64,000 bases of DNA. Origin: an uncultured Actinomycetes bacterium (lineage in GTDB: Bacteria > Actinomycetota > Actinomycetes > S36-B12 > UBA10799). Position 1 is the stretch's first letter, and every line of letters begins with the position of its first letter. Location of the stretch: positions 33,262-97,261 of the forward strand of contig CAYYRC010000006.1 of the NCBI GenBank assembly GCA_964474045.1. The letters run 5' to 3'. Of this stretch, positions 45,285 to 64,000 are shown piece after piece. A program made the position numbers and the translations under genes. The notes under the pieces were generated by a model. It saw only the letters and a program-made list of their open reading frames with translations, was not told where the DNA came from and did no database searches.

Positions 45285-46904
45285 ATGTCCGATGTGAGGC
45301 CACCGGGACGCTGGCCGCTGGTGCTCGCCGCGGTGGTCGCCCTGGTCGTGGCGGCCGGCCTGCTCGGCTACCGGCTGGTCGCAGGCGGCAGCGGCGGCAA
45401 CGGCGGCGACGAGGTGTCCAGGTCAGCCGGGGGACCTGCGCCAGCCGGACTCGACTGGCAGGCCTGCGCGGACGCGCCCGATCAGCAATGTGCCTTCTTG
45501 GTGGTTCCCGCGTCCTGGTCCGACCCGTCGGGCCGCACCTTCCGACTTCATGTGCGGCGGTTGCCGGCGCAGCCGACCTCGACCGCGGAGCCGGTGCTGG
45601 GGAGTCTGGTGATCAACACCGGCGGTCCCGGGATTCCGTCGAGCGCGTACGCGTTGGGGTCGCTGTCCGCGGCCGCGTCGCCGTTGCGCGCCAAGTTCGA
45701 CCTCGTCTGGCCGGACCCGCGCGGGACCGGACTGTCGGAGCCGACGTTGGTCACCTGCCCGCAGGAGCCGCTGCTCACTCGGCAGGAGCCGGCCGCCGGG
45801 GCGTTCACCTGGCCGCAGGTCACGGGTTTCCGGATCGGGCAGGAGGCGCCGCTCGGGGCGGAGTGCATGCGCCGCAACGCGGTCGACGGAAAGCTGTTGG
45901 GCACCCGGGAAGTGGTGCGTGACCTCGACGCCTTGCGGCAGGCGCTCGGCGACGACCAGTTGACCTTCCTCGGCTATAGCTACGGCACCCGCATCGGCAC
46001 CCAGTACGCGCAGGCGTTCCCCGATCGCGTGCGAGCCATGGTCCTCGACGGCAGCGTGGACCCCAGCGGCACGGTCATGGGCCTCGGGTCGACGTTGGCG
46101 GCCGGGGGTGTCGAGTCGTCGCAGTTCGTCCGGTCGTCGTTGCCGCCGGGCATGCAGGGCGTGTACGACGAGGTCGTGCAGCGGCTGCGCACCGAGGTGA
46201 TCGACGTCGACGGCGCGGTCACCACGCGGTGGACCTTCGGCTGGGACCTGGCCGCCCTGGCCGGCGGCCAGCCCAGTGCGGCGGCGAATGAGCAGATCTC
46301 CCAATTGCTGTGCGACCTTGCCCGCGCCGCGTCCTCGCCCCCCGGCCCATGCGCCGAACGCGGGCCCGTCGTCGAATCGTCGGCCGGCGCCTCGGATCCG
46401 CCGGTGTCGCTCAGCGACGTGGACGAAGTGTCCGGCGCCGGCGGCACCATGACCGGTGCGCCAGCAGAGCCCATGGCGCTCTCGCCGGCCAAGCAGTTGA
46501 TCAACTGCGCGGACCTCGCCGGGCGCCCCGACGCCGCGGCGCTGGCGTCGTTGATGCCGCCGGCCGATCAGCCCGACACCCCGCTGCCAGCCTCGGTGGT
46601 GCTCATGTACGTGCCGATGTGTTCGGGCTACCCCGAGGCCTGGGCCCCCATCGGGCCCATGACCCCGGCGGTGGACGGTCCTCCTCCGCTGTTCGTCAAC
46701 GGCACCGCCGACCCGGCCACCCCCATCGATGGCGCCCGGGCGATGCAGGCGTTCTTCCCCGGTGCCCGGATGGTCGCCCTGCCCACCGCGCAGCACGGGG
46801 TGTTCCCGGCCGCGGGATCGACGTGCGTCAACGCTGCTGTGACGAGCTACCTGCTGACGGCGGTGTCGCCCCAGGCGGACGTGAACTGCCCCGCGACCCC
46901 CTGA
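45285..46904 (+). CDS. Secreted alpha/beta hydrolase (tripeptidyl aminopeptidase / TAP-like)
   Basis: N-terminal TM/signal segment. Nucleophile elbow GYSYG. C-terminal LFVNGTADPATP. Confidence 0.75.
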   Translation: MSDVRPPGRWPLVLAAVVALVVAAGLLGYRLVAGGSGGNGGDEVSRSAGGPAPAGLDWQACADAPDQQCAFLVVPASWSDPSGRTFRLHVRRLPAQPTSTAEPVLGSLVINTGGPGIPSSAYALGSLSAAASPLRAKFDLVWPDPRGTGLSEPTLVTCPQEPLLTRQEPAAGAFTWPQVTGFRIGQEAPLGAECMRRNAVDGKLLGTREVVRDLDALRQALGDDQLTFLGYSYGTRIGTQYAQAFPDRVRAMVLDGSVDPSGTVMGLGSTLAAGGVESSQFVRSSLPPGMQGVYDEVVQRLRTEVIDVDGAVTTRWTFGWDLAALAGGQPSAAANEQISQLLCDLARAASSPPGPCAERGPVVESSAGASDPPVSLSDVDEVSGAGGTMTGAPAEPMALSPAKQLINCADLAGRPDAAALASLMPPADQPDTPLPASVVLMYVPMCSGYPEAWAPIGPMTPAVDGPPPLFVNGTADPATPIDGARAMQAFFPGARMVALPTAQHGVFPAAGSTCVNAAVTSYLLTAVSPQADVNCPATP

Positions 46905-46955: not shown

Positions 46956-47576
46956 TCAGCTCCAGCCCTTGGTCATGTGGAGCTCGAAGTTTTTGAAGTA
47001 GTCCGAGTCGCCGTGGCGCTTGCCGGTGAACGCCGCGCCCGCGATGGGGGACACGTAGTGGTGCACGGTGCCGACCCAGTAGGACTTCGACTGGTAGCTC
47101 ACCGACAGCCAGGGACAGCCCCAGGCCGGGTTCTCGCCGTCCACCTCGATGGCCTTGAAGACGCTGTTCTCCTTCGCGTCCTCGGCGCTGCGGAAGACGC
47201 GCAGCTGCACGTCGTCCACGCCGGCGAAGTTGCCCGTGTAGGCCTTGGACTGGCCGGGCTGCAGGGCGGTGGCGCTGAACCAGCTGGTGAAGACCTCGTG
47301 TTCGCGCACCCAGACCGTGCTGCCGGTGTCGTTGCGGAAGGTCACTCGGGTCCCCTTCGTGAACGAGGCGTCCGACTCCGTCTCGGCCGCGGGCGTCGCC
47401 GGTGCGGGCGCCGTGGCCGCTGGTGCCGGAGCGGGCGCCGTGGCCGCTGGCGCCGGAGCGGGCGCAGCTGGCGCGGCGAAGGCCGGGACGCTGGCGAGGC
47501 CGGCGATGGAGCCCGCGGCGAGCAGGGCCGCAGCTGCACGGCGTGCGAATCGCGTGGTCGTGGTGGTGGTTGCCAT
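46956..47576 (-). CDS. Secreted protein of unknown function, paralog A (signal peptide, Pro/Ala linker, 135-aa C-terminal domain)
   Basis: MATTTTTTRFARRAAAALLAAGSIAGLASVPAFA signal. GAGGAG RBS. 98/135 residues identical to 53611..54240 by hand alignment. Confidence 0.8.
   Translation of the reverse strand: MATTTTTTRFARRAAAALLAAGSIAGLASVPAFAAPAAPAPAPAATAPAPAPAATAPAPATPAAETESDASFTKGTRVTFRNDTGSTVWVREHEVFTSWFSATALQPGQSKAYTGNFAGVDDVQLRVFRSAEDAKENSVFKAIEVDGENPAWGCPWLSVSYQSKSYWVGTVHHYVSPIAGAAFTGKRHGDSDYFKNFELHMTKGWS
47398..47475 (-). repeat. 27-nt tandem repeat (about 2.7 units) encoding APAPAPAAT units in the paralog A linker
   Basis: gccggtgcgggcgccgtggccgctggt followed by gccggagcgggcgccgtggccgctggc, read directly. 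Confidence 0.85.
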
Positions 47577-47599
47577 GGGGTACTCCTCGTTGGTCGCTT

Positions 47600-47622
47600 C
47601 AGTGGTTGCTGCGTCCAATGTG
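47600..47622 (-). promoter_or_regulatory. 23-nt block identical to 54264..54286, 24 nt upstream of the paralog A start (5' UTR or core promoter)
   Basis: cagtggttgctgcgtccaatgtg on the plus strand in both copies, at the same distance from the ATG. Confidence 0.6.
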
Positions 47623-47657
47623 AGGGCGCCCCGAACCGACTTCAATGCCGTGCGAAC

Positions 47658-47693
47658 CGAAACCGTTTTCGACTCTGGTGGAAACCGATTTCA
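47658..47693. promoter_or_regulatory. Two 14-bp palindromic boxes, CGAAACCGTTTTCG (47658-47671) and GGAAACCGATTTCA (47680-47693), 22 bp centre to centre
   Basis: Read directly. The same pair occurs at 54322..54357 upstream of paralog B. Confidence 0.6.
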
Positions 47694-47959
47694 CGCTCGG
47701 GAGCCCCTCCTGACCACCGGACATGACGTCGGTCGATCCTCGGCCGGCAGGGCTTGACGGGATTGCTGTCCGTTCGGCTGACACCGGAGTCCCCTCCCCG
47801 GCCGGCGATGCGAACGAGAGCTGCGCGGGGACATCTACCCCGGGGTAGGTGCGGATCGTGGGTGCCAGGTCCGAATCCTCTTGGGGCAAGGCGAGACCTA
47901 CCCGGTGCTGGACCAGAATGGAGGTGTTGGACCAGGTTGGAGTTGCTGTCGGCCGCTGA

Positions 47960-47980
47960 GAACTCGTCAGCGACGAGTTC
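47960..47980. promoter_or_regulatory. Perfect inverted repeat GAACTCGTC-AGC-GACGAGTTC, 31 nt upstream of the deaminase-lipoprotein start
   Basis: Read directly. It could be an operator or a 5' UTR hairpin. Confidence 0.4.
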
Positions 47981-48010
47981 GATGTCAGTGTCGTGAGGTT
48001 GGAGCAGGCC

Positions 48011-49408
48011 ATGGAGCATGGTCACGCGGTATCGCGCCGGTCGGCGCTCAAGCTTGGGCTGGGCGCCGCGGGGGCCACGCTCTTGCCGGGGGTCGCCGGC
48101 TGCGCCACTGCCGCGATGCCTGGTGGGGCCGCCTCGTCCGGGGCGTCCGGGTCGTCGGCAACCGGCGTGGCCTCCCAGGGCGGTGAACCCGCGGTCCCGG
48201 GATCGGTCCACGACGCCGAGCAGGCGGCCCAGGTCGCGCTCGCCATGGCTCGGCTGGCGGCGAGCGCCCAGACCTTCGCGGTCGGCGGGGCCATCATCGA
48301 GAACAGCAGCGGGCGGGTCATCCACGCGCTGCAGAACCGCGTGCTGCAGGATCTCGGCACCGGCCTGGGGCCCCTCTCGGACACCCCCTACACCCAGGAC
48401 CCGACGGCGCACGGCGAGCGCCAGCTCGTCTACTGGTACTTCGCCAATCGCGAGTCCGGCCTGTTGCCGCCGCCGCAGGAGCTGACGGTGGTCACGTCGC
48501 TGGATCCCTGCGCCATGTGCGCCGGCTCGTTGACGTCGGCGGGCTTCCACACCGCGGTGGTGGCCCTGGACGACTTCGCCGGCGTGAACTTCAACGGCAA
48601 GACGGACTTCGCCGGGTATCCCACCGGAGTCGGCGACGCGCTGCGCGGCACCTTCGGGTACTACGGCGTCGACGGCGGGCGAGCCTTCGCCGGCGCGCCC
48701 AACACGCTGTTCGCGAGCACGGCCGTCACCGCAACGACGGCAGCGGCCTGCGGCGACGTCTTCGGCTCGACCGCGGATGGCGTCCGGGCCGCGAGCAGCG
48801 GATCGGGCCTGGACCCCGCCAACCCTGACAACAACATGTCCGATCCGGCCAACTCGTCGATCAGGGGGCCGTACTCGCTGAGCTTTCCCGACGCGTTCAC
48901 CATCCGCCTCGCCGACTACCGACGGCCCGACGCGGTCCTGCGCGATTACCTGACCGGGCTGGTGGAGCGCACGCCTGGCGCCCGCAACGCCGTTGCGCTG
49001 ATCGACTTCTACGGCAACCTGCTGATGGCCTCGGCGGACCGCTTCGACATCAATCCCATCGCCACCGCCTTCATGACCACCACGCAGGAGTACGCCCGCC
49101 TGCGCTTCGCGCTGGTCGACGATCCGGTCACCAGCGCGGTCGCGCAACGCACGCTCACCAGTCCGGCGCACGGCACGTTCGTGTTGCTGCACGCCCTCGA
49201 CGGCGTGAGCACGCTGGGATTGAAGGATCTGGGGGCCTACGGCTCGAGCATGGAGGGCAAGATCCCGGTCACGCAGCCGAGCAACTTCCAGTACTTCGAG
49301 GGCCCGCTGCAGGGGACCGTCGCCGACCTGACCGCCCTGATCGCCGCGATGCCGCCGTTCTACACGAAGCTTGTCGGCATCGACCCGCAGCAGGTGGTCC
49401 TGGACTGA
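48011..49408 (+). CDS. Tat-signal lipoprotein with N-terminal TadA/CDA-fold deaminase domain and unknown C-terminal domain
   Basis: SRRSALKLGLGAAGATLLPGVAGC carries a twin-Arg motif and a lipobox. DPTAHGE ..29 aa.. LDPCAMCAGS forms an HxE/PCxxC zinc site. ATG 48011 follows GGAG by 6 nt; the ORF track starts at 47993. Confidence 0.75.
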   Translation: MEHGHAVSRRSALKLGLGAAGATLLPGVAGCATAAMPGGAASSGASGSSATGVASQGGEPAVPGSVHDAEQAAQVALAMARLAASAQTFAVGGAIIENSSGRVIHALQNRVLQDLGTGLGPLSDTPYTQDPTAHGERQLVYWYFANRESGLLPPPQELTVVTSLDPCAMCAGSLTSAGFHTAVVALDDFAGVNFNGKTDFAGYPTGVGDALRGTFGYYGVDGGRAFAGAPNTLFASTAVTATTAAACGDVFGSTADGVRAASSGSGLDPANPDNNMSDPANSSIRGPYSLSFPDAFTIRLADYRRPDAVLRDYLTGLVERTPGARNAVALIDFYGNLLMASADRFDINPIATAFMTTTQEYARLRFALVDDPVTSAVAQRTLTSPAHGTFVLLHALDGVSTLGLKDLGAYGSSMEGKIPVTQPSNFQYFEGPLQGTVADLTALIAAMPPFYTKLVGIDPQQVVLD

Positions 49409-49435
49409 GCGCTGGCCGGCTTGGCCCGGCCGTGA

Positions 49436-49488
49436 CAGGTTTGTGCCCGAAAACGGCCCGCCGGTGGTGGTTTTCGGGCACAAACCTG
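49436..49488. repeat. Long-hairpin repeat copy A: 19-bp perfect arms CAGGTTTGTGCCCGAAAAC / GTTTTCGGGCACAAACCTG with a 15-nt loop
   Basis: Read directly. It lies between the convergent stops at 49408 (+) and 49511 (-). Confidence 0.85.
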
Positions 49489-49510
49489 ACGCGAGAGGCT
49501 GCAACCGGCA

Positions 49511-52048
49511 TTAGCTGCGATGCTCGACACCCGGTGTCTTTCGCCAACGCGCCGCCGCGGCGATGGCTTCGTCTCGCCCGCTCACGTCCAGCTTGCGGTA
49601 CAGGCGTCGCAGCCGGGTCTTGATGGTGTTGGTGGAGACGCCGAGCTCCGCGGCCATCTGGGCCTGTGTTGCGCGACTGGGCAACCGTGCCAGCAGCTCG
49701 ACCTCACCTGGGCTCAGCCGCGGCCCATCCGGGTCTCGCGGCGCGGCGAGCGGTCGCAACGACAGGGGATCGCCGTCCTCGCCGGGTCGCTCCGCCCCGT
49801 CCCTCGCACTAGTCGCCGCCGGCAGAACCACCCCTTGGTCGACCGCCAACTGCCGGAATCCCGGATGCTCTGCGAACACCCCGGCCAGACCGTGCCGCCG
49901 CGCGATCTCGACGGCCCCACGCACGTGCGCCGCATCATCCTGACTCGCGGCTGCCAGGCTGCTTGCCTGAGCCAGCAGGATGCGGCGCTCCAGGGCGCTG
50001 CGCGGTTGCCCGGTGGACAGCGCCCCCAGCGCTCGCGCCACCTGCGTCGGTCGTCGTTCCAGGAACGACCAGGCTGCCAACAGGGTCCTGTCCGCCGACG
50101 GCGGCAGCTGCCTGATCACCGCCTCGGCGGACTCGGCATCGCCTGCGACGAGCAGAGTCCGCGCGTGCGCTCGGTTGACCTCCGGCCACAGGCCGCTTTC
50201 GGGGTTGACCGCCCGTAACTGCGCTCGGGTCCGATGCAGGATGTCGAAGGCGGAGTCGATCTGTCCGGCGCGCACGTCGACCGCGCACCTTTGGAGTCGG
50301 GCATGCGTCAGGCCCCCCGTCGACGCGCGTCCCGAAGCCACCGCCTCGGCCCGCAGCAGCAGGTCCCGCGCCTGCGCGAGCTCGCCCTGTTCGAGCAGCA
50401 CCCCGGCCTGCGCCACCACGAGCGTCAGGTGAGAAAGGGCCGTCGTCGTCGCGCCGCGCGACTCGAGGAAACGGCGCGCGCCTTCGAGGTCTGCGGCGGC
50501 CTCATGCATGTGTCCCTGCCGTGCCGCTGCGCCCGCCCGTACCGCCCGGAAGGACACCTCCCGGATCATGTCGTTGGGCATGTCTCCGACCCGAAGCCGG
50601 GCCAACTCCGCAGCAGCCTCCTCGGTTCGGCCCTCCCACAGGAGTCCGCGTGCGACGACGACGGGCGCGAGCTGGTGGGAGTTGGCCGTGTAGTCGTCGC
50701 CGAAGGCGGCTACCGCGGACCGGGCGGCGGCGATCATCCCGGCGGTGTCCGCCATCGCCCCGGCCAGGCACGCCGACAGCAGCTGGACCTCGCCCCGCAC
50801 GGCGGCGCGCTGGGCGGCCTCCAGTTCCGCCGCGATGGACGACACCAGCCAGGCTTCCAGGCGCGCGAGGCACTGTCGGACCATCGTGGTGTCCCCGCCC
50901 CACAGGGAGGCCCAACCTATCCGCAGCTCGTGCTCTGTGGAGCTGGCCCACGTGGTGGGGGGAAGGTCGGAGTACCAGGTGAGCGCCAACTCGGCCTGGC
51001 CCGTGGTGATGAGGTGTACCTCGACGTCTCGCAGCTGCTCGCCAGCCTCCTGGTATCGACCGGCCTCGATCAGGTGGAAGATCGCGGATTCGACCTCGCC
51101 GCGCTCGACGTAGTGCTCGGCCACGCGCTGATGGGCCTCGAGCCTCTCGCTGCGGCTGCCCCCGCCGCCTCGCGACGCCAGCGCCGCCGTCAGCAGTCGG
51201 TGCCTACGCCAGCGCGGTGTGGCGTCGGTCGTGACGTCGCGGCAGAGCAGGCCCTCGCTGCGGGTGATGCTGCGCAACAACTGCTGAGAGTCATCGGCGT
51301 CGCGGACGACGTCGCACGCGGGCGCATCGAGCCGATCCAGCATGGCGGTCTCGCGCAGGAAGGCCTGCTGCGCCGACGTCAGCGATCTCCACCACGGCGC
51401 GACCGCGACCTCGGCGCCGTGCTGCCCCAACCATCGGGCCACCGCCTCGGTCCGCGCGGGCCCTTCGGACACCCGACGCAGCCGGGACGCCGCAAGCACC
51501 AGCGGCGCCACCCAGCCCTCGCTCAGATCGATGATGCGTGCCACCTCCGGCGCCTGCGGTGATCCCGGGGCGAGCAGCTCCAGCACGGCATGGGCCTCCT
51601 CGTCGGTGAAGGCCAGGTCGGATCGGTCGAGCAGGATCGATCCCGGGAAGCGCAGCGTGACCTCGTCCAGCGACTCCTGCGAGCTCATGATCAGCCCCGA
51701 CCAGATGGCGACGTCCTCAATCAGCGCGGCGCGCGCTTCCTCGGCTTCCGAGCTCGACGCCACACCGTCGCAGTCCACCAGCACGTAGCGGATCCGGCCT
51801 TCGCCCCGGGCATCCTCCAGGCGCCGCCGCAGTCGGACCCACGCGCCCGGGTCGTCGGCCGCGACGCTCACCAGCTGCGCCGACTCCGGGCCGGCCCTGG
51901 CCGCGGCCTGCCGGAGCGCTGTCGTGCGGCCGAATCCCGTCGGTGCGCTCAGCAGGCACGGCGCGTGGGGCGCCGCCGCCAGCATTAAGTCGGCCAGCCT
52001 CGACCGCACCAGGGTGGTGGGGCCGAGGACGGCCGACTCTGCGTTCAC
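49511..52048 (-). CDS. LAL-type (MalT-like STAND NTPase + TPR-like + LuxR/GerE HTH) transcriptional regulator
   Basis: N-terminal P-loop LLSAPTGFGRTTAL (MalT has SAPAGYGKTT). Long helical-repeat middle region. C-terminal QAQMAAELGVSTNTIKTRLRRLYRKLDV. GTGA overlap with the upstream gene. Confidence 0.85.
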   Translation of the reverse strand: MNAESAVLGPTTLVRSRLADLMLAAAPHAPCLLSAPTGFGRTTALRQAAARAGPESAQLVSVAADDPGAWVRLRRRLEDARGEGRIRYVLVDCDGVASSSEAEEARAALIEDVAIWSGLIMSSQESLDEVTLRFPGSILLDRSDLAFTDEEAHAVLELLAPGSPQAPEVARIIDLSEGWVAPLVLAASRLRRVSEGPARTEAVARWLGQHGAEVAVAPWWRSLTSAQQAFLRETAMLDRLDAPACDVVRDADDSQQLLRSITRSEGLLCRDVTTDATPRWRRHRLLTAALASRGGGGSRSERLEAHQRVAEHYVERGEVESAIFHLIEAGRYQEAGEQLRDVEVHLITTGQAELALTWYSDLPPTTWASSTEHELRIGWASLWGGDTTMVRQCLARLEAWLVSSIAAELEAAQRAAVRGEVQLLSACLAGAMADTAGMIAAARSAVAAFGDDYTANSHQLAPVVVARGLLWEGRTEEAAAELARLRVGDMPNDMIREVSFRAVRAGAAARQGHMHEAAADLEGARRFLESRGATTTALSHLTLVVAQAGVLLEQGELAQARDLLLRAEAVASGRASTGGLTHARLQRCAVDVRAGQIDSAFDILHRTRAQLRAVNPESGLWPEVNRAHARTLLVAGDAESAEAVIRQLPPSADRTLLAAWSFLERRPTQVARALGALSTGQPRSALERRILLAQASSLAAASQDDAAHVRGAVEIARRHGLAGVFAEHPGFRQLAVDQGVVLPAATSARDGAERPGEDGDPLSLRPLAAPRDPDGPRLSPGEVELLARLPSRATQAQMAAELGVSTNTIKTRLRRLYRKLDVSGRDEAIAAAARWRKTPGVEHRS

Positions 52049-53478
52049 GTGCGGTGCGCCTCCGCCACCAGGTCGTAGTCGTGGTTGTTGATCTGACGGT
52101 ACGCCATGGCGAACTGCGCGATCGCCTCGTCGAACTCGTCACCGCTGCCCAGGTAGCCGCCGATGAGGCTGGCATCGCCGGTGCGGGCGTGCGCCCTGGC
52201 CAGCACCGCGCCACAGACCCGGCCGTATCCGCGCAGGGCGCTGGCGTCGAGCATCTCCGGCTCGATCGCACCCTTGAAGTCCTTCAGCTGCCGTAGGAAG
52301 TACTCGTGGTCGCGACCGCTGGACCAGCCCAGGAACGGGTCGCCGCTGGCCTGCATTGCCTGCGTCCCCAGCACCACCCGCTGGCCGTGGTGGTCCAGCG
52401 GCGACTTGCCCAGGTAGCGCTCGAGCACCGACTCGCTGGCCTGCTTGATCTGCAGCAGCAGCGGCTCGCCGTCGCCGGACTCCAGCAGCACCACGAGCGC
52501 CCGCGTGCCCACGCTCCCGACGCCCACCACCTTGTGCGCGACGTCCACGAACGAGTAGCGCGCCAGCAGCGCCAGGCGGTCCGGGGCGAGCGTGGCCAGG
52601 TACTCGGCGTACAACGCGCGCAGTCGGGCCACGACGTCATCGCGATGGTCCTCGGGAACCCGCACCAGCACGGGTGGCTCGTCGCGGAAGATCCGCCCTG
52701 ACGGCGTCATCGTCGTCATCTTCATGGTGGCGGTGTTGGCGGTGCGGCCGAGGGCCTTCTTGCGGGCTTTCTTCGTGGCCTTCGCCAGCGATGACTTGCC
52801 CTCGGCGTCCACCAGGTTGTCCACGTCCAGGCGCGCGTACCAGACGTCCAGGGTGGGCATCTCGGCCAGCTCGGCGATGGTCTCGCGGTAGGCGGCCGCC
52901 GCGCCTTGCGCGGCCCTGCGACCCACCTTGTCCGGAAGCTCGAGCGCCGTGGCGGCCACCGCGAGGCTTGCGGCGAGGCGCTTGACGTCCCACTCGAACG
53001 GCCCGGGCAGCGTCTCGTCGAAGTCGTTCAGGTCGAACATGAGGCCGCGGTCGGGGGCGGCGAACATTCCGAAGTTGGACAGATGCGCATCCCCGCAGAG
53101 CTGAGTCCGGATGCCGGTGGCCGGGATCAGGGAGAGGTCGCTGGCCATCACCGCCGCCGCACCGCGCAGGAACGTGAACGGGCTGGCAGTCATCCGCTCG
53201 TAGCGCAGGGGCACGAGTGCCTGCTCGCGGTTGGCGTCCTGTTCGGCGAGGAGAGCCACGGGGTCCCGACGGGCGTCCGGAACGGGTACGTCCGCGTGCG
53301 TCGCGAGCGGGACCGCGTCCCGCACTGACTCGCCCTGGGCGGCCCTCTCGGCGCGGCTGCGGCGGGGACTGCTGAAGAACGACTGGGCAGTGATCGGGGA
53401 GGTGGGGGGCTCTGTGGTTGGTGTCTCGGTCACGTGGCCATGGTGACCTCCGGTTGGGGCGCGCGCCAGAGACGTCAC
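52045..53478 (-). CDS. DUF2252-family protein (protein-kinase-like fold predicted)
   Basis: PFTFLRGAAAVMASDL, LCGDAHLSNFG and MFDLNDFDE, which are HGDxHxxN-like and DFD-like motifs. Confidence 0.75.
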   Translation of the reverse strand: MTSLARAPTGGHHGHVTETPTTEPPTSPITAQSFFSSPRRSRAERAAQGESVRDAVPLATHADVPVPDARRDPVALLAEQDANREQALVPLRYERMTASPFTFLRGAAAVMASDLSLIPATGIRTQLCGDAHLSNFGMFAAPDRGLMFDLNDFDETLPGPFEWDVKRLAASLAVAATALELPDKVGRRAAQGAAAAYRETIAELAEMPTLDVWYARLDVDNLVDAEGKSSLAKATKKARKKALGRTANTATMKMTTMTPSGRIFRDEPPVLVRVPEDHRDDVVARLRALYAEYLATLAPDRLALLARYSFVDVAHKVVGVGSVGTRALVVLLESGDGEPLLLQIKQASESVLERYLGKSPLDHHGQRVVLGTQAMQASGDPFLGWSSGRDHEYFLRQLKDFKGAIEPEMLDASALRGYGRVCGAVLARAHARTGDASLIGGYLGSGDEFDEAIAQFAMAYRQINNHDYDLVAEAHRT

Positions 53479-53610: not shown

Positions 53611-54240
53611 TCAGCTCCAGCCCTTGGTCATGGTCAGCTCGAACTGCTTGTAGTGCGACGTGTCGCCGTGGCGCTTGCCGGTGAAGTGGGCGCCGGCGAT
53701 GGGGGACACGTAGTAGTGCTGGGTGCCCACGCTGTAGTACTTGGACTGATAGCTGACCGAGAGCCAGGGGCTGGACCAGGCGGGGTTCTCGGCGTCGACC
53801 TCGATGGCCTTGAAGACGCTGTTCTCGCGGGCGTCCTCGGCGCTGCGGAAGACGCGCAGCTGTACGTCGTCCACGCCGCCGTAGTTGCCGTGGTAGGACC
53901 TGGTCTCGCCCGGCTGCAAGACGTCGGAGGCCCACCAGTCGGTGAAGGCCTTGTGCTCGCGCACCCAGATAGCGCCGCCGCTCGCGTTGCGGAAGTACAC
54001 GGACGTCCCCTTCGTGAACGAGTTGTCGCTATCTGCAGCGGGCGCGGGCGCCGCGGGAACGGCGCCGACCTCGGTGGCCGGGGCGGGGGCTGCCGGGGCG
54101 GGGGCTGCCGGGGCGGGGGCCGCCGGCGCCGGGGCCGCCGGCGCAGCGAGGGACGGCACGGCGGTGAGGCTCGCGATGGAGCCGGCGGCCAGCAGCGCCG
54201 CCGCTGCGCGGGCCGCGAGTCGGGTCGTCTTGGTGGTCAT
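53611..54240 (-). CDS. Secreted protein of unknown function, paralog B
   Basis: MTTKTTRLAARAAAALLAAGSIASLTAVPSLA signal, (AAPAP)n linker, and a C-terminal domain about 73% identical to paralog A. Confidence 0.8.
   Translation of the reverse strand: MTTKTTRLAARAAAALLAAGSIASLTAVPSLAAPAAPAPAAPAPAAPAPAAPAPATEVGAVPAAPAPAADSDNSFTKGTSVYFRNASGGAIWVREHKAFTDWWASDVLQPGETRSYHGNYGGVDDVQLRVFRSAEDARENSVFKAIEVDAENPAWSSPWLSVSYQSKYYSVGTQHYYVSPIAGAHFTGKRHGDTSHYKQFELTMTKGWS
54077..54141 (-). repeat. 15-nt tandem repeat (about 4.3 units) encoding (AAPAP)n in the paralog B linker
   Basis: gccggggcgggggct x3 followed by degenerate units, read directly. Confidence 0.85.
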
Positions 54241-54263
54241 GGGGTGCTCCTCTTCGGTTGCAT

Positions 54264-54286
54264 CAGTGGTTGCTGCGTCCAATGTG
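54264..54286 (-). promoter_or_regulatory. 23-nt block identical to 47600..47622, 24 nt upstream of the paralog B start
   Basis: Read directly. Confidence 0.6.
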
Positions 54287-54321
54287 CGGGTGCCGCGATG
54301 GGAGTTCAATGCCCCTCGAGC

Positions 54322-54357
54322 CGAAACCGATTTCGACCTGACCCGAAACCGTTTTCG
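54322..54357. promoter_or_regulatory. Two palindromic boxes, CGAAACCGATTTCG (54322-54335) and CGAAACCGTTTTCG (54344-54357), 22 bp centre to centre
   Basis: Read directly. They lie in the 217-bp divergent region between paralog B and the MDR dehydrogenase. Confidence 0.6.
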
Positions 54358-54457
54358 GACGTCGGGTGGCGACGCAGCTCGGGGTCGGGACCTGTCGCGG
54401 CGCCAGTGAAAAGTGGATTCGGAGTTCGGCTGTGGTGAGTCCTCGTAACCTGCTGTC

Positions 54458-55423
54458 ATGAGAACCAGTCACCGTCCCGGCTACGGGCCGCCGAGCGTGC
54501 TTCGCGTTCGCGATGCGCCGGTTCCGAGGCCGGCCGTCGGCGAGGTGCTCGTGCGGGTGCACGCGGCCTCGGTGAACCGAACGGACAGCGGCATCCTGCG
54601 CGGCAAACCCTTCATCTTCCGCTTCTTCGCCGGGTTCCCACGACCGCGCTTCAGCGCCACCGGCTGCGACTTCGCGGGCGAGGTGGAGGCCGTCGGCGAC
54701 GGGGTCTCCGGGTTCGCTGTCGGTGATCGGGTCTACGGGCTCGACGACACTGGGCTCGGCTCTCACACGCAGTTTGTGGTCGTGCCGGTGGCGAAAGCCG
54801 TGCTGCACATGCCAGCGGGGTTGACGTTCGCCGACGCTGTGGGCTGCACCGAGGGCGCGTTCTACGCGGTCAACTTCCTCAACAAGGTCGATCTCTCCCC
54901 GGGCCAGAGGGTGCTCGTGATCGGCGGCACGGGGGCCATCGGATCAGCGGCGATCCAGCTGCTCGCCGCCCGCGGCATCGAGGTGGATGCCGTCTGCCCG
55001 GCAGAGCATGCGGACTTGGTGCGCTCGCTCGGCGCCGCCGCCGTATTCGATGCTGACCGCCGTGATCACCTGGTGCCGAGCGAGCCTTACGACTTCGTGT
55101 TCGACGCCGTCGGCAAGAGTCGGTTCTCGCTCTGCCGGCCGATCCTGACCAGTCGTGGGGTCTACGTCTCGTCCGAACTCGGACCGCGTGGAGAGAACTT
55201 GGCACTGCCCTTGGTCACCGCCGTCGGCAAAGGACGGCGAGTCGTCTTCCCCATCCCGCGCGACCCGGCGGGGTCGTTGCGCATCGTCCGCGATCTGGTG
55301 GCCCGAGGCGCCTTCCGAGCCGTCATCGACCGCAGCTACGCCCTCGACGACATCGTTGCGGCGTTCGAGTACATGGAGAGCGGCCAGAAGATCGGCACCG
55401 TGGTGCTCGACCCCTGGGCCTGA
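54458..55423 (+). CDS. Medium-chain dehydrogenase/reductase (quinone oxidoreductase / zeta-crystallin-like)
   Basis: GEVLVRVHAASVNRTD and VLVIGGTGAIGSAAIQL Rossmann motif. 321 aa. Confidence 0.85.
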   Translation: MRTSHRPGYGPPSVLRVRDAPVPRPAVGEVLVRVHAASVNRTDSGILRGKPFIFRFFAGFPRPRFSATGCDFAGEVEAVGDGVSGFAVGDRVYGLDDTGLGSHTQFVVVPVAKAVLHMPAGLTFADAVGCTEGAFYAVNFLNKVDLSPGQRVLVIGGTGAIGSAAIQLLAARGIEVDAVCPAEHADLVRSLGAAAVFDADRRDHLVPSEPYDFVFDAVGKSRFSLCRPILTSRGVYVSSELGPRGENLALPLVTAVGKGRRVVFPIPRDPAGSLRIVRDLVARGAFRAVIDRSYALDDIVAAFEYMESGQKIGTVVLDPWA

Positions 55424-61794: not shown

Positions 61795-62047
61795 TCGTGC
61801 TGGGCCGGATTGGCTTCGGCCGTGCCTCGACTCCGCCCGACTCGTCATCCTCGCGTATCCCACCATCGCGAGAGGTGAGCCGCACTCCGCGGGTAGCTCG
61901 TACTCGGCGGAGGACCGCGCCAAACCCCCAACCCACAATTGGCCGGGTCGCGGCGCTGGGAAATTCGCGGCTGCGGCCGCAACCGGCTCAGGTTTCGGTA
62001 GATTCGCCCGTAGCCGCCTCGCACCTTTCACGGAGAGGATTCCGGCC

Positions 62048-63736
62048 TTGGCCCGCATGATTCCGCCGGTTGTGGATGGCGATGCCCCGCCTGGTGAGAG
62101 GCGGCTATACGAACTCCTGGCGACAGCTTCCGATACAGACGACTGGATTGCCATTCACGGGCTTCACCTTGCGGACCATCCCAACCAGCAGCGTGGCGAG
62201 ACCGACTTCGTCGTGATCGCCCCAGAGCGCGGGGTGCTGGTGATCGAGGTCAAATCGCATCGGTCGGTACGACGTGACAAACGAGGAATGTGGTTGCTCG
62301 GATCCCAGGCACCCACTGATCGCAGCCCGTTTGACCAGGCTGACGACGAGATGTTCGCGATCAAGACGTACCTTGCACAGAGGATGGGGCTCAGTACGAC
62401 CCACATCGAATCCTGCGTTTGGTTCACCCACGCGCCAGCCAGGCGTGAGTTCGTCGACGCGATCGAGTGGAGCCCGTGGCGCCTGCTCGATTCGGGGGAT
62501 CTGGTGGACGTGCCGGGGAGGATCGCGCACGTGCTTGCCGAGGGGCGTGAGCATCGGGCCAAGGCCGGACATTCCTGGCCTGCCGTGGTCGGCCCGGACA
62601 GGGCCACTGCGGAGAAGATCGTCTCGGTGCTGAAGCCTGCCATGCATGCTCAGCCCAGGCCCGCGGACCTCCGGCGGGAACGGGCCAACGAGCTCGCCCG
62701 ACTGCTTGAGGAGCAGGCGGAGGTCCTCGATGGTCTGTTGGAGAACGACCAGGTCCTGGTCACGGGTCCGGCCGGCTGTGGGAAGACCTTCCTGGCACTG
62801 GCCGCAGCGCGAAGGGAAGCTGAGAACGGCAAGCGTGGTCTGCTGGTCTGCTACAACCATGCGATTTGTGACTTCCTCGAGGAACAGGCTGATGGTATCT
62901 CCGGCCTCAGGGTGGCGACCCTCCATGAACTGATGCGCGAAGTTGCGGATGTCCCAGCGGGTGAGATCACGGATCGCGACTTCTGGGAGCAGGAGTTGCC
63001 CGCAGCGGCGTTGGAGGCGCTGCTGTATTCGGACGACGAACCGGTGGACTACCTGATAGTCGACGAGGCACAGGACATTTGCCGACCGAACTATCTCGAT
63101 GTACTCGACCTGGCGGTCAAGGGGGGACTTGCTCAGGGACGCTGCATGTTTTTTGGGGACCTCGATGACCAGGCTGTGTACATCGACTCGCCAAGGACAC
63201 ATCTGGAAGACGCCGCGGGTCGCGTTGCGAAGTACAAGCTGAAAGTCAACTGCCGGAACAATCCCGGTATCGCCCGCGCCGCTTCGGAATTCGGTGATGC
63301 CGTCAACCACTACTCGCGGTGTAGCCGCAGCGAAGGCGGCAGCACCCCGGCGGTCTTCGAGTACGCCACCATGCCGGAGCAACAGGAACTGCTCCTGAAC
63401 TCCGTCCAGGGTCTGCGCGAGGAGGGCTTTGACCTGCACGAGATTGTCGTTCTCAGCCGCTACCGCGAGCGCGCGGCCGCCGCGCAGGCGACGGATCCCT
63501 GGCTGAGGCAAGTATTGGTGGATTTCAGGCGTGGTGGCCAGATTCCCAAGGGACGCATCCGCTACTCGACGATACATTCATTCAAGGGTCTGGAAGCGCC
63601 CGCGATCATCCTGACGGACGTGACGGCGTCCGGGCGTGGTCCCTACTTCGATCTGCTGAACGTGGGCATCACCAGGGCTCGAGACCGCCTGGTGATTTTC
63701 GGGACGGCCGACGGCCTGCGGCAGCACCGAGGGTGA
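62048..63736 (+). CDS. NERD nuclease-like domain fused to SF1 (UvrD/PcrA-like) helicase/ATPase
   Basis: GETDFVVIAPERGVLVIEVKSH (D..ExK). Walker A TGPAGCGKT. YLIVDEAQDI. C-terminal STIHSFKGLEAPAIIL and NVGITRARDRLVIF. TTG start lies 9 nt after GGAGAGG. Confidence 0.8.
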   Translation: MARMIPPVVDGDAPPGERRLYELLATASDTDDWIAIHGLHLADHPNQQRGETDFVVIAPERGVLVIEVKSHRSVRRDKRGMWLLGSQAPTDRSPFDQADDEMFAIKTYLAQRMGLSTTHIESCVWFTHAPARREFVDAIEWSPWRLLDSGDLVDVPGRIAHVLAEGREHRAKAGHSWPAVVGPDRATAEKIVSVLKPAMHAQPRPADLRRERANELARLLEEQAEVLDGLLENDQVLVTGPAGCGKTFLALAAARREAENGKRGLLVCYNHAICDFLEEQADGISGLRVATLHELMREVADVPAGEITDRDFWEQELPAAALEALLYSDDEPVDYLIVDEAQDICRPNYLDVLDLAVKGGLAQGRCMFFGDLDDQAVYIDSPRTHLEDAAGRVAKYKLKVNCRNNPGIARAASEFGDAVNHYSRCSRSEGGSTPAVFEYATMPEQQELLLNSVQGLREEGFDLHEIVVLSRYRERAAAAQATDPWLRQVLVDFRRGGQIPKGRIRYSTIHSFKGLEAPAIILTDVTASGRGPYFDLLNVGITRARDRLVIFGTADGLRQHRG

Positions 63737-63887
63737 AGACCGCACATCGAAGTGCGCGAATGTAGTCGGTGGCGAACCAACCATCCGTAGGCTGCCCGGG
63801 TCAGGCGTAGATCCCCGGAATTGGTCTGATCCCGAGCCGCCAGACTGATGACGTGGCCGTTCTTGGCAGCCTGTGCGAAAGAGCCTC

Positions 63888-64000
63888 TCACCCCAGCTCG
63901 TCGCTCGGGTCCTGCAGCACGCGTCCCAGCTCCGGGTGCTCCACCGCGTCGTAGCCGTGGTCGTCGAGCCAGGCCAGCACGGCGTCCACCCGGTCCCCGG
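63888..64000 (-). CDS. 3' end of an unidentified CDS that starts beyond the window
   Basis: Minus-strand frame reads ..GDRVDAVLAWLDDHGYDAVEHPELGRVLQDPSDELG-stop and is open to the window edge. Confidence 0.3.
   Translation of the reverse strand, partial: GDRVDAVLAWLDDHGYDAVEHPELGRVLQDPSDELG

Follow-up and report, generated by a model that had tools for sequence, protein, structure and literature searches.

Much work on CDA-fold deaminases has dealt with nucleotide salvage, the editing of tRNA and mRNA, immunity, toxins and base editors, and to our knowledge the bacterial ones are either cytoplasmic enzymes or injected toxins. A 64,000-nucleotide stretch of DNA from an uncultured Actinomycetes bacterium (the window) contains a gene for which an original prediction, made from the sequence, had proposed a Tat-exported lipoprotein carrying a TadA-like zinc deaminase domain. 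Is the encoded protein a zinc deaminase at all, is it likely to be exported, and what would such an enzyme do on the outer side of the membrane?

Results

The gene and its setting

48011-49408, plus strand: complete coding sequence of a two-domain deaminase with a predicted export signal, 465 amino acids plus stop codon, from the ORF listing
48001-48004, plus strand: Shine-Dalgarno sequence GGAG, 6 nt upstream of the ATG at 48011, read from the sequence

The coding sequence lies within an ORF at 47993-49408 (plus strand) of the program-made ORF listing, and translation from the ATG at 48011 is strongly supported. Public records of the identical protein start at the same ATG, and the twin-arginine motif is located downstream of all candidate starts of the ORF. 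A start downstream of the signal sequence had been raised as a possible objection in the original prediction; the signal proves to be conserved in orthologs. The identical protein (P0267) is found on 42 contigs in public collections, and a near-identical protein from an Actinomycetota MAG is recorded as a "nucleoside deaminase" (TXH40268.1).

The gene is flanked by a gene for a secreted protein without known function and by a MalT/LuxR-type regulator gene. A 365-bp divergent intergenic region lies on its 5' side, and the convergent regulator gene follows after about 100 bp on its 3' side. A tblastn search with PLD-like, UshA-like and Excalibur proteins found no nuclease, nucleotidase or Excalibur neighbor in the window. 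PADLOC gave no hit to the deaminase or its window neighbors, its DrmC hits being confined to the PLD-like neighbors of other loci. Rfam returned no match at the gathering threshold across the whole window and none at E <= 1 on 47500-48150, and across 11 diverse family loci it returned tRNA only, with no riboswitch or other clue to a ligand. A promoter and terminator scan of 47600-49600 yielded nothing, the sigma-70 consensus being a poor fit to an actinobacterium of 70% GC.

A predicted Tat lipoprotein signal

48011-48100, plus strand: predicted Tat-type lipoprotein signal peptide, residues 1-30, from the sequence
48032-48052, plus strand: twin-arginine motif SRRSALK, residues 8-14
48092-48103, plus strand: lipobox V28-A29-G30-C31, fitting [LVI][ASTVI][GAS]C at the end of the signal
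48104-48208, plus strand: Ala/Gly/Ser/Pro low-complexity tether, residues 32-66, predicted to be disordered

The N terminus bears out the twin-arginine consensus and lipobox that had been proposed for it. The segment S8-R9-R10-S11-A12-L13-K14 corresponds to the Tat consensus (S/T-R-R-x-F-L-K) except for alanine in place of phenylalanine, and is followed by a 13-residue hydrophobic stretch, LGLGAAGATLLPG; the canonical RRxFLKF is present in proteobacterial homologs. Orthologs from Actinomycetota and Proteobacteria keep both the RR motif and the lipobox, the cysteine of which is aligned across homologs from the two phyla. C31 is predicted to carry the lipid and to begin the mature protein, and the deaminase is likewise predicted to depend on Tat for its export. 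Among full-length family members, 83 of 174 possess the RR motif, and 68 of these 83 have the lipobox too. The tether that follows varies in sequence and length in the homolog alignment, and pLDDT falls below 50 at residues 21-56 of the AlphaFold2 model. The mature protein is acidic, with a pI of 4.68 and a net charge of -15 (family median pI, 5.2).

The N-terminal domain is a predicted catalytic zinc deaminase

48209-48715, plus strand: CDA-fold zinc deaminase domain, predicted to be catalytic, residues ~67-235
48335-48337, plus strand: N109, invariant in the family alignment
48410-48418, plus strand: H134-G-E136, the HxE motif
48506-48520, plus strand: P166-C-A-M-C170, the PCxxC motif

Pfam PF00383 matches residues 69-184 with 32.6 bits (E 7.6e-8), above its gathering cut-off of 25. 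The HxE/PCxxC site and its spacing are as originally described, with motifs D130-P-T-A-H134-G-E136 and L164-D-P166-C167-A-M-C170 and 29 residues between E136 and P166. In an alignment of 38 homologs with 41-67% identity to the window protein, N109, D130, P131, T132, H134, E136, P166, C167 and C170 are invariant, and PCxxC is present in every full-length match of the homolog search. Because the Pfam score exceeds the gathering cut-off and these residues are invariant in the 38 homologs, the site is not a chance motif. H134, C167 and C170 are predicted to be the zinc ligands and E136 the proton shuttle.

Structure prediction agrees with the proposed CDA fold. The AlphaFold2 model of the full-length protein (pLDDT 91.2, pTM 0.85) has a three-layer alpha/beta/alpha deaminase fold in its N-terminal domain, which Foldseek matched to Msd, TadA, ADAT2, guanosine deaminase (GSDA), yeast cytosine deaminase (yCD) and NE0047 (E 4e-6 to 3e-4, probability 1.00). 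Comparison of this domain with the PDB gave 81 matches at E <= 1e-3, with deaminases only among the matches listed, and the similarity to Msd is no greater than that to TadA, ADAT2 or yCD (TM 0.6-0.7 for all). Searching the PDB with the single protein sequence gave E values of about 0.1-2 only; a PDB-sequence profile search placed yCD on top (E 6e-7) and aligned N109 with its Asn51, which strongly supports the assignment of N109 to the position of the substrate-binding asparagine of the yeast enzyme. A 17-residue insert separates N109 from D130. After strand 5, a family-specific linker and a further domain replace the C-terminal lid or tail, and no alignable equivalent was found for the specificity residues of that element, such as D155 in yCD. 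Fold and motifs cannot distinguish among cytosine, guanine, adenine, their nucleosides and non-nucleobase amidines as substrates.

The zinc deaminase domain of the original prediction stands, and the epithet "TadA-like" does not: it is too specific, because DPTAH(A/G)E is common to the whole TadA/GuaD/Msd/yCD clade, and the best profile match of known structure is yCD. The NCBIfam equivalog for TadA, NF008113, reaches 12.5 bits against a cut-off of 150 and covers residues 157-184 only. TadA is a single-domain cytoplasmic protein of about 150-170 aa; a protein of 465 aa with two domains, a conserved Tat/lipobox signal and an acidic mature form does not answer to that identity. Other deaminase families were also searched with HMMs, as had been suggested, and the toxin models remained below their cut-offs (MafB19-deam, 23.0 bits against 27; Bd3614-deam, 15.2 against 38.5).

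A probable pseudo-deaminase domain at the C terminus

48716-48907, plus strand: helical linker or insert, residues 236-299, family-conserved, within alignment A2
48908-49405, plus strand: probable degenerate second CDA-fold ("pseudo-deaminase") domain, residues ~300-465

The C-terminal portion had been described as a domain of roughly 230 aa that could not be assigned. Residues ~190-465 match no Pfam or NCBIfam model, as that description implied; the Foldseek matches nevertheless make it most likely that the region contains a degenerate second CDA fold. The linker contains helices at 241-263 and 285-291 (pLDDT >90 in the full-length AlphaFold2 model). A model of the isolated C-terminal domain (pLDDT 91) has its secondary structure in the order alpha-beta-beta-alpha-beta-alpha-beta-alpha, and PDB ranks 1-31 of its Foldseek search are occupied exclusively by CDA-fold proteins, including Msd, dCMP deaminases, TadA, ADAT2, RibD, GSDA, FdhD and APOBEC3C. 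The values are marginal (E 1e-2 to 1, probability up to 1.00, TM up to 0.61), with Msd the best match (E 1.2e-2, probability 0.99). His and Cys zinc ligands are absent from the N termini of helices 353-369 and 401-414, where T352/A/F and A395 are conserved, and the domain lacks the catalytic Glu as well. The domain has its own family-specific invariant residues, N326, D332, G335, N336, Y361, R365, G388 and T389, and its profile recovers only 155 clusters among 1.84 billion (1.84e9) representatives. An internal duplication was not detected by hhalign of the N-half against the C-half (probability 0.1%), and the likeness of the halves is at the fold level only.

What is new here is the reading of this region: judged from the models, it most likely adopts the deaminase fold once more, in a degenerate form devoid of zinc ligands, as a pseudo-partner fused to the catalytic domain. 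The whole-chain pTM of 0.85 suggests that the two domains have a defined arrangement.

Distribution of the family and gene neighborhoods

The family was found in about 240 reference species, and the window gene is not a one-off. Signals are present in 72 of 73 and 27 of 30 members of two sub-clades (RR motif in 54 of 73 and 27 of 30), compared with 1 of 32 in a third, signal-less sub-clade from Pseudomonas and cyanobacteria. Members of the first two sub-clades are predicted to be almost always exported, mostly as Tat lipoproteins, and predicted export is a clade-level trait. The carriers are often small-genome freshwater Actinomycetota (Nanopelagicales; one contig of about 1 Mb), Limnohabitans and Polynucleobacter, and members also occur in soil Mycobacterium, Mycolicibacterium and Pseudomonas. 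One member carries a fused DctP/TRAP solute-binding domain, and some carry extracellular DUF4214/DUF4114 modules. An association with mobile elements was considered and rejected, the only homologs on plasmid-type records being on three Sinorhizobium megaplasmid/chromid records. Hundreds of database entries bear the automatic names "TadA" and "cytosine deaminase", which are misleading for this family. No characterised bacterial counterpart or exoenzyme family, a prospect for which the original prediction had allowed, was found in record names or literature, and our literature search for a periplasmic, extracellular or Tat-exported bacterial CDA-type deaminase returned fish SNAD proteins and toxin papers only.

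In 24 actinobacterial loci the gene directly adjoins one to three genes for exported two-HKD PLDc_2 lipoproteins, and in L020 and L027 stop and start codons overlap. These PLD-like neighbors are nearest to the Nuc/NucT/DrmC nuclease branch and match models of DrmC, from the DISARM defence system (E 4e-11). Three proteobacterial loci (L091, L011 and L015) have genes for UshA-type 5'-nucleotidases no more than 3 kb away, a Metallophos gene is near a cyanobacterial copy (L051), and a phosphoribosyltransferase gene is immediately upstream in L003/L004. The divergent neighbor of the closest ortholog encodes an Excalibur-domain secreted protein. At most loci the neighborhood is not conserved and the gene is monocistronic, outside any conserved metabolic operon. 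All-against-all clustering of the flanking ORFs of 80 loci recovered lineage-restricted partners only and no conserved small partner or immunity gene; none is present in the window either, as had been noted.

Discussion

Our reading, held with moderate confidence, is that the product of the gene is a zinc deaminase tethered to the membrane outside the cytoplasm, a fused pair of active and dead CDA-fold domains, for the scavenging of nucleic acids. The deaminase would fold and bind zinc in the cytoplasm and then be exported folded by Tat and lipidated at C31, which would place the mature enzyme on the external side of the cytoplasmic membrane, the side that borders the periplasm in the proteobacterial homologs. 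TadA-, GuaD- and yCD-type enzymes need a second subunit as homodimers; the dead domain may take the part of that subunit and make the protein a self-contained monomeric pseudo-dimer. The substrate of the enzyme would be a small aminated nucleobase or nucleoside, possibly a nucleotide, of the cytosine/cytidine, guanine/guanosine or adenine/adenosine class. Exported nucleases and 5'-nucleotidases would first free nucleotides and nucleosides outside the cell, and the deaminase would perform the last step, releasing ammonia and converting the base to an uptake-ready form of the uracil, xanthine or hypoxanthine type, to be salvaged.

We infer extracytoplasmic deamination of nucleosides or bases from the company that the relatives of the gene keep. 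Of the three roles originally suggested, the gene neighborhoods of relatives favor extracellular nucleoside or base salvage. A small-molecule substrate is indicated by the acidic mature protein, the existence of a signal-less sub-clade and the DctP/TRAP fusion. The frequency of the family in small-genome freshwater Actinomycetota, Limnohabitans and Polynucleobacter also speaks for the scavenging role. That role is weakened by the window gene itself, which has no nuclease or nucleotidase neighbors.

It is unlikely that the enzyme instead serves in detoxification, inactivating toxic aminated analogues of nucleobases or nucleosides ahead of their entry into the cell, as a counterpart, on the outer side of the membrane, of blasticidin-S deaminase or mycobacterial Msd. 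Candidate compounds would be blasticidin S-type cytosine nucleoside antibiotics, 5-azacytosine, isoguanine and 8-azaguanine-like mutagenic bases. This would fit with the top structural matches, which are Msd (Msmeg3575) with bound 5-azacytosine or ammeline, and Msd is described as selective for mutagenic bases (PMC11963756); it would also fit with the monocistronic gene and with those soil carriers, Mycobacterium, Mycolicibacterium and Pseudomonas, that meet such compounds. However, the family is frequent among freshwater plankton with small genomes, where the linked genes encode nucleases or nucleotidases and not resistance or efflux functions, it is not plasmid-borne, and the structural likeness to Msd is matched by that to TadA, ADAT2 and yCD. 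Alternatively, the fold could act as a generic cell-surface hydrolytic deaminase that scavenges nitrogen from a non-nucleobase amine or amidine, such as pterins, s-triazines (ammeline), heterocycles of the creatinine-like or guanidino kind, or some as yet unknown compound of the dissolved organic nitrogen. CDA-type guanine deaminases and Msd accept ammeline and other s-triazines as substrates too (the 5xkq and NE0047 entries are among the hits), the 17-residue insert and Y361/R365 of the pseudo-domain could shape a pocket unlike that of characterised relatives, and some members are fused to DctP solute-binding or DUF4214/DUF4114 modules. We nevertheless regard this as improbable, since any exoenzymes in the neighborhood are phosphoesterases of nucleic acids or nucleotides, a phosphoribosyltransferase is also among the neighbors, and the substrate-binding asparagine characteristic of nucleobase deaminases is invariant in the family.

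Deamination of polynucleotides, either as a toxin against neighboring cells or as an envelope defence against phage or transforming DNA, would require action on extracellular or incoming DNA or RNA, in some lineages jointly with the adjacent PLD/DrmC-like nucleases. The Foldseek likeness to TadA and ADAT2, the weak, sub-threshold MafB19-deaminase match (23 bits) and the DrmC matches of the PLD-like neighbors point in this direction. Against it are the strongly acidic mature protein, the N-terminal position of a deaminase that is not a C-terminal cassette, a predicted membrane anchor in place of release, and a sequence that is conserved rather than polymorphic. No immunity gene, toxin-delivery domain, secretion-system context or PADLOC hit was found, and the signal-less Pseudomonas sub-clade has no immunity partner of the kind that a DNA mutator would need. 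We consider such a role highly unlikely. It is formally conceivable, and scarcely credible, that the signal peptide is an annotation artefact, that translation begins at the in-frame ATG of residue 36, and that the protein is an ordinary cytoplasmic nucleoside deaminase, as one whole sub-clade is. The GGAG precedes the ATG at 48011, M36 is not conserved, and the catalytic domain does not begin before about residue 67. Across phyla, the protein sequence preserves the RR motif, the hydrophobic region and the cysteine of the lipobox, which would not be expected of untranslated sequence.

If the scavenging reading is correct, a conserved and widespread exported lipoprotein form would place nucleobase deamination outside the cell, and models of extracellular DNA and nucleotide recycling and of nitrogen regeneration in nutrient-poor waters would change. 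The family is widespread but unstudied and probably serves to obtain nitrogen from extracellular breakdown products of nucleic acids. We put forward tentatively, at somewhat less than even odds, that this family is the first in the CDA superfamily of bacteria to provide a metabolic deaminase outside the cytoplasm, as a Tat-exported, lipid-anchored and self-contained active/pseudo tandem in which invariant Tyr, Arg, Asn and Asp residues of the pseudo-domain contribute to the substrate pocket. It would bring a new ammonia-releasing step into the breakdown of dissolved DNA, RNA and nucleotides at the surface of very abundant freshwater bacterioplankton (Nanopelagicales, Limnohabitans, Polynucleobacter). 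The pseudo-deaminase module would be an unannotated protein domain with no Pfam entry, and the protein a natural single-chain deaminase with no need to dimerise, possibly of interest to enzyme and base-editor engineers. The automatic names of hundreds of entries would be corrected.

Comparison with known systems

The polymorphic-toxin deaminases (MafB19, DddA/SsdA-type and Bd3614-like) likewise combine the CDA fold with export from the producer cell. They are C-terminal cassettes placed after trafficking domains, usually with immunity genes, and have nucleic-acid targets (Iyer et al. 2011, PMC3239186). In the window protein the deaminase domain directly follows the signal and tether, the mature protein is acidic (pI 4.7), and neither an immunity gene nor a secretion-system context accompanies it; we rejected assignment to this group. 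The UshA/CpdB 5'-nucleotidases and Nuc-type PLD nucleases, which are neighbors of family members, have the same predicted compartment as the deaminase and are phosphoesterases of unrelated folds. The proposed role would lengthen their pathway by a deamination; we know of no deaminase step in this extracytoplasmic route, and our literature searches brought none to light.

The pairing of a catalytic CDA-fold domain with a second CDA-fold domain of broken zinc site is found in E. coli-type cytidine deaminase, plant CDA and the double-domain APOBEC3 proteins. The C-terminal domain of plant CDA is described as inactive (PMC3239186). These cytosolic or nuclear proteins are members of the CDD/CDA or APOBEC clades, and their halves can be recognised as related in sequence, whereas the halves of the window protein have no detectable sequence similarity and its catalytic half belongs to the TadA/GuaD/yCD clade. 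ADAT2/ADAT3 provides a precedent for a pair of active and inactive deaminase-fold subunits, and TadA and ADAT2-ADAT3 have the DPTAH(A/G)E and (L/E)PCxMC motifs and the fold in common with the window protein (TM 0.69-0.71, target-normalised). In contrast to TadA, which is cytoplasmic and binds tRNA, the window protein is acidic, is predicted to be exported and has two domains per chain.

Among solved structures, yeast cytosine deaminase (Fcy1/yCD; PDB 1uaq, 1p6o) gives the best match to the sequence profile, and its first helix/strand block and PCxxC block align with those of the window protein. The yeast enzyme has 158 aa, is a homodimer in the cytosol and closes its active site with a C-terminal helix; the linker and pseudo-domain stand in the place of that element in the window protein. 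Msd (Msmeg3575; PDB 5xko, 5xkp, 5xkq, 8wlw), the top Foldseek match of the catalytic domain (E 3.7e-6), shares the HxE/PCxxC zinc site with the window protein and takes free bases as substrates. It is a protein of about 157 aa lacking a signal peptide, with only 15-21% identity to the window protein, which has in addition the predicted Tat lipoprotein signal, the tether, the insert after N109 and the fused pseudo-domain. The nearest solved relatives of this deaminase, Msd and yeast cytosine deaminase, are free-base or nucleoside deaminases.

A probable exported zinc deaminase

The gene at 48011-49408 (+) very probably encodes an exported two-domain zinc deaminase in which a catalytic domain is joined to a pseudo-deaminase partner. 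Window GC is about 70%, and the open reading frame extends from 47993 to 49408 (+). The ATG at 48011 lies 6 nt downstream of a GGAG sequence and is also the start of an identical public protein, P0267, present on 42 contigs; the near-identical TXH40268.1, from an Actinomycetota MAG, is named "nucleoside deaminase". The elements on which the original prediction was built, a twin-arginine motif, a lipobox and two deaminase motifs, are all present in the product:

residues 8-14, SRRSALK, twin-arginine consensus with a single deviation (A for F), followed by a hydrophobic stretch
residues 28-31, lipobox V28-A29-G30-C31
residues 130-136, first deaminase motif, D130-PTAH134-G-E136
residues 164-170, second deaminase motif, L164-DP166-C167-AM-C170

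Residues 69-184 score 32.6 bits with Pfam PF00383 (dCMP_cyt_deam_1), whose curated cut-off is 25, and in the same search the toxin-type models MafB19 and Bd3614 remained under their cut-offs. From 5.8 billion proteins searched, 8,000 candidates were scored and 396 matched the window protein, most of them with the same two-part architecture and a length of 410-500 aa. Across 38 aligned members (41-67% identity to the window protein), H134, E136, P166, C167, C170, N109 and D130-P131-T132 are invariant. The AlphaFold2 model based on this alignment (pLDDT 91.2, pTM 0.85) predicts disorder only in residues 1-4 and 21-56, corresponding to signal and tether. Foldseek comparison of the N-terminal domain with the PDB returned several deaminases (E 4e-6 to 3e-4, probability 1.00), namely M. 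smegmatis Msd (which deaminates 5-azacytosine, ammeline and bases like them), TadA, ADAT2, Arabidopsis guanosine deaminase, yeast cytosine deaminase (yCD) and the Nitrosomonas guanine deaminase NE0047. When PDB sequences were searched with the family profile, yCD was the top match (E 6e-7), its substrate-binding Asn51 aligning with the invariant N109. Because of these profile and structural matches, the N-terminal domain is a member of the TadA/GuaD/yCD/Msd clade, and the predicted "TadA-like" label is therefore too narrow, although the deaminase assignment itself stands. Identity with TadA is ruled out on score, size and location, the window protein reaching 12.5 bits with the NCBIfam TadA equivalog model against a cut-off of 150.

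The export signal is conserved across phyla. An RR motif is found in the N-terminal extension of 83 of 174 full-length family members, 68 of which have a lipobox as well; approximately 21 lack RR but have a hydrophobic or lipobox signal, and 62 have no extension. Clustering of the mature regions gave three main sub-clades: that of the window protein (73 sequences, 72 with signals), an actinobacterial one (30 sequences, RR in 27) and a signal-less one (32 sequences, 31 without extension). Proteobacterial members have the canonical RRxFLKF...C. A mis-called start of the window gene is excluded, since the RR, the hydrophobic region and the Cys are conserved at the protein level across phyla. Tat substrates are folded before they cross the membrane, and this route would suit a protein that has to fold and take up zinc beforehand. 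The signal-less form is about 410 aa, as in the Pseudomonas and cyanobacterial genome matches, and the P. migulae copy begins MSTLNSAQEAVD, right at the first helix. Upstream of the signal-less Pseudomonas homolog (L085 4468-5697 (+) and homologous loci) there is consistently a Methyltransf_32 gene along with an ABC transporter operon of the His/Arg type, which may be plain genus synteny and not a functional link. The window protein is 52-58% identical to Limnohabitans/Polynucleobacter-type sequences versus 41-47% to most actinobacterial ones, a possible trace of horizontal exchange between freshwater bacteria.

A probable degenerate second deaminase domain

The C-terminal domain had been considered unassignable, and indeed no Pfam or NCBIfam model matches residues ~190-465. 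In the model, the secondary-structure order from residue ~300 (helix, strand, strand, helix, strand, helix, strand, helix) is that of the deaminase fold. Profile-profile comparison detected no sequence similarity between the two halves of the protein, and residues 236-465 were for that reason modeled alone (alignment A2, pLDDT 91.1) and compared with the PDB. Ranks 1-31 were all CDA-fold proteins, among them Msd, phage and human dCMP deaminases, TadA, ADAT2, RibD, guanosine deaminase, plant CDA, FdhD and APOBEC3C, with probability up to 1.00 and TM up to 0.61 but E values of just 1e-2 to 1. There is no His or Cys at the helix starts equivalent to HxE and PCxxC of active domains. From the modeled fold and the missing zinc ligands, we conclude that the domain can be assigned as a degenerate pseudo-deaminase. 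It keeps invariant residues of its own in the 38-member alignment (N326, D332, G335, N336, Y361, R365, G388 and T389), a pattern indicating selection for something other than catalysis. Its profile matches only 155 clusters (50% identity) among 1.84 billion representatives, nearly always 170-230 residues from the N-terminus, i.e., behind a deaminase domain. Since TadA, GuaD and yCD-type enzymes act as homodimers, the simplest reading would be that the dead domain takes the place of the second subunit; active/inactive pairs of the ADAT2/ADAT3 type occur among the structural matches.

Genomic context and the toxin alternative

The following genes surround the deaminase gene in the window:

45285-46904 (+), TAP-like alpha/beta hydrolase (Abhydrolase_1 and Abhydrolase_4, tripeptidyl-aminopeptidase type), ~1 kb upstream
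46956-47645 (-), secreted paralog 1, divergent neighbor
49511-52048 (-), MalT/LAL-type LuxR regulator, 845 aa, convergent
52045-53478 (-), DUF2252 gene, its end overlapping the regulator start by 4 bp
53611-54459 (-), secreted paralog 2, 66% identical to paralog 1

The original prediction saw no obvious immunity gene, and there is no room for one, because a 365-bp divergent intergenic region and the convergent regulator ~100 bp downstream flank the deaminase gene. Nor did a small conserved partner emerge when the flanking ORFs of 80 genome loci were all clustered. The deaminase is unmatched by PADLOC and essentially absent from plasmids, and with a pI of 4.68 (median for the family, 5.2) and a net charge of about -15 its mature form is strongly acidic, which argues against DNA or RNA binding. 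All of this weighs against a toxin, a reading disfavored also by homologs that have neither signal nor immunity partner, and the window protein does not look like one.

Both secreted paralogs have an Ala/Pro-rich linker and a conserved ~150-aa domain with no match in Pfam, NCBIfam or PADLOC; translation probably begins at internal ATGs (47576 and 54240). Palindrome-like GAAA(A/T)CGGTTTC boxes, two per paralog, lie at:

47659-47670 and 47681-47692
54323-54334 and 54345-54356

Each pair is spaced 22 bp within a nearly identical leader of ~125 nt 5' of the paralogs, and the pair at 47659-47692 falls between paralog 1 and the deaminase gene. The eight strand-matches, versus 0.22 expected, have no counterpart elsewhere in the window; the boxes are probably operator sites of a regulator. 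The TAP-like hydrolase, with its N-terminal hydrophobic segment, is probably an exoenzyme too and recalls the secreted sedolisin-like peptidases encoded close to homologs in loci L020, L024, L025 and L027. GC falls to 0.637 at 62001-64000 from 0.69-0.74 elsewhere, a possible boundary of a foreign or RNA-coding segment.

A possible role in nucleic-acid scavenging

Most family loci lack a conserved operon; three independent lineage-specific neighbor links all point in the same direction. One to three tandem PLDc_2 lipoprotein genes directly adjoin the deaminase gene in 24 of ~61 non-Pseudomonas loci; the 24 are all from Actinomycetota, mostly from freshwater MAGs, and stop and start codons overlap in two of them, L020 and L027. 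In three proteobacterial loci, a UshA/CpdB-type 5'-nucleotidase (Metallophos and 5_nucleotid_C) is encoded no more than 3 kb from the deaminase gene. The regions are:

L017 2443-5939, L016 1833-4651, L020 3512-5974, L027 1840-5851 and 20 further loci, PLDc_2 lipoproteins
L091 5614-7554 (-), L011 9719-11557 (+), L015 1326-1820 (-), 5'-nucleotidases
L051 4316-4891 (+), Metallophos gene near a cyanobacterial deaminase copy

Each lipoprotein, ~380 aa long, has a pair of HKD motifs and matches PLDc_2 twice (E 1e-20 to 1e-27); the nearest named relatives, Nuc (PDB 1byr), NucT and DrmC, make up the nuclease branch within the PLD superfamily. Several of these loci encode a secreted sedolisin-like peptidase close by. 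Lipoproteins and deaminase together look like an uncharacterized surface phosphodiesterase-deaminase module. For the nucleotidase neighbors, chance would give ~0.2 cases among ~40 loci, a rough estimate that assumes ten or so neighboring genes at each locus and one or two such genes in each genome. A phosphoribosyltransferase gene is directly 5' of the deaminase gene of P0040 (L003/L004), from a Gram-negative-type metagenomic lineage, and the divergent neighbor of the closest ortholog, P0003 (68% identity), encodes a 700-aa secreted Excalibur-domain protein. An AbiEi/AbiEii toxin-antitoxin pair (L089 4947-6370; L090 4713-6136) ~0.7 kb 3' of the P0003 gene suggests a variable genomic region around that copy.

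Long family members (P0155, P0129, P0158, P0132, P0142 and P0167) fuse the deaminase and pseudo-deaminase unit to other domains. P0155 (1289 aa) has an N-terminal DctP/TRAP solute-binding domain and shares with P0129 (845 aa) and P0158 (895 aa) a C-terminal extension of ~430 aa beginning DSG(P/E)GSLR; others have extracellular DUF4214 or DUF4114 modules. The neighbor links, the fusions, the acidic surface and the free-base or nucleoside deaminase relatives suggest a surface enzyme that would deaminate nucleosides or bases freed from extracellular nucleic acids, yielding ammonia and a salvageable base. We consider such scavenging moderately likely and, as the linked neighbors of relatives, nuclease, nucleotidase or other, are not present beside the window gene, applicable to the window copy by homology only.

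Comparison with known deaminases

The original interpretation is supported, with corrections: the deaminase is not specifically TadA-like, an assignment can now be given for its C-terminal domain, and the family, which is widespread, has a sister clade that is cytoplasmic. Automatic names of its members ("nucleoside deaminase", "cytosine deaminase", "TadA") are generic or wrong. Where it deals with secreted deaminases, the deaminase-fold survey of Iyer et al. (PMC3239186) treats them only as toxins, and a term search of that survey returned no mention of the two-domain exported architecture. The full-text literature searched yielded nothing relevant on periplasmic, extracellular or Tat-exported bacterial CDA-type deaminases, which is not proof of absence. 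Both the fold and the enzyme chemistry are familiar; the novelty lies in three features occurring together, namely Tat-lipoprotein export that is conserved, a pseudo-deaminase domain that is fused and specific to the family, and a link to extracytoplasmic nucleic-acid phosphoesterases.
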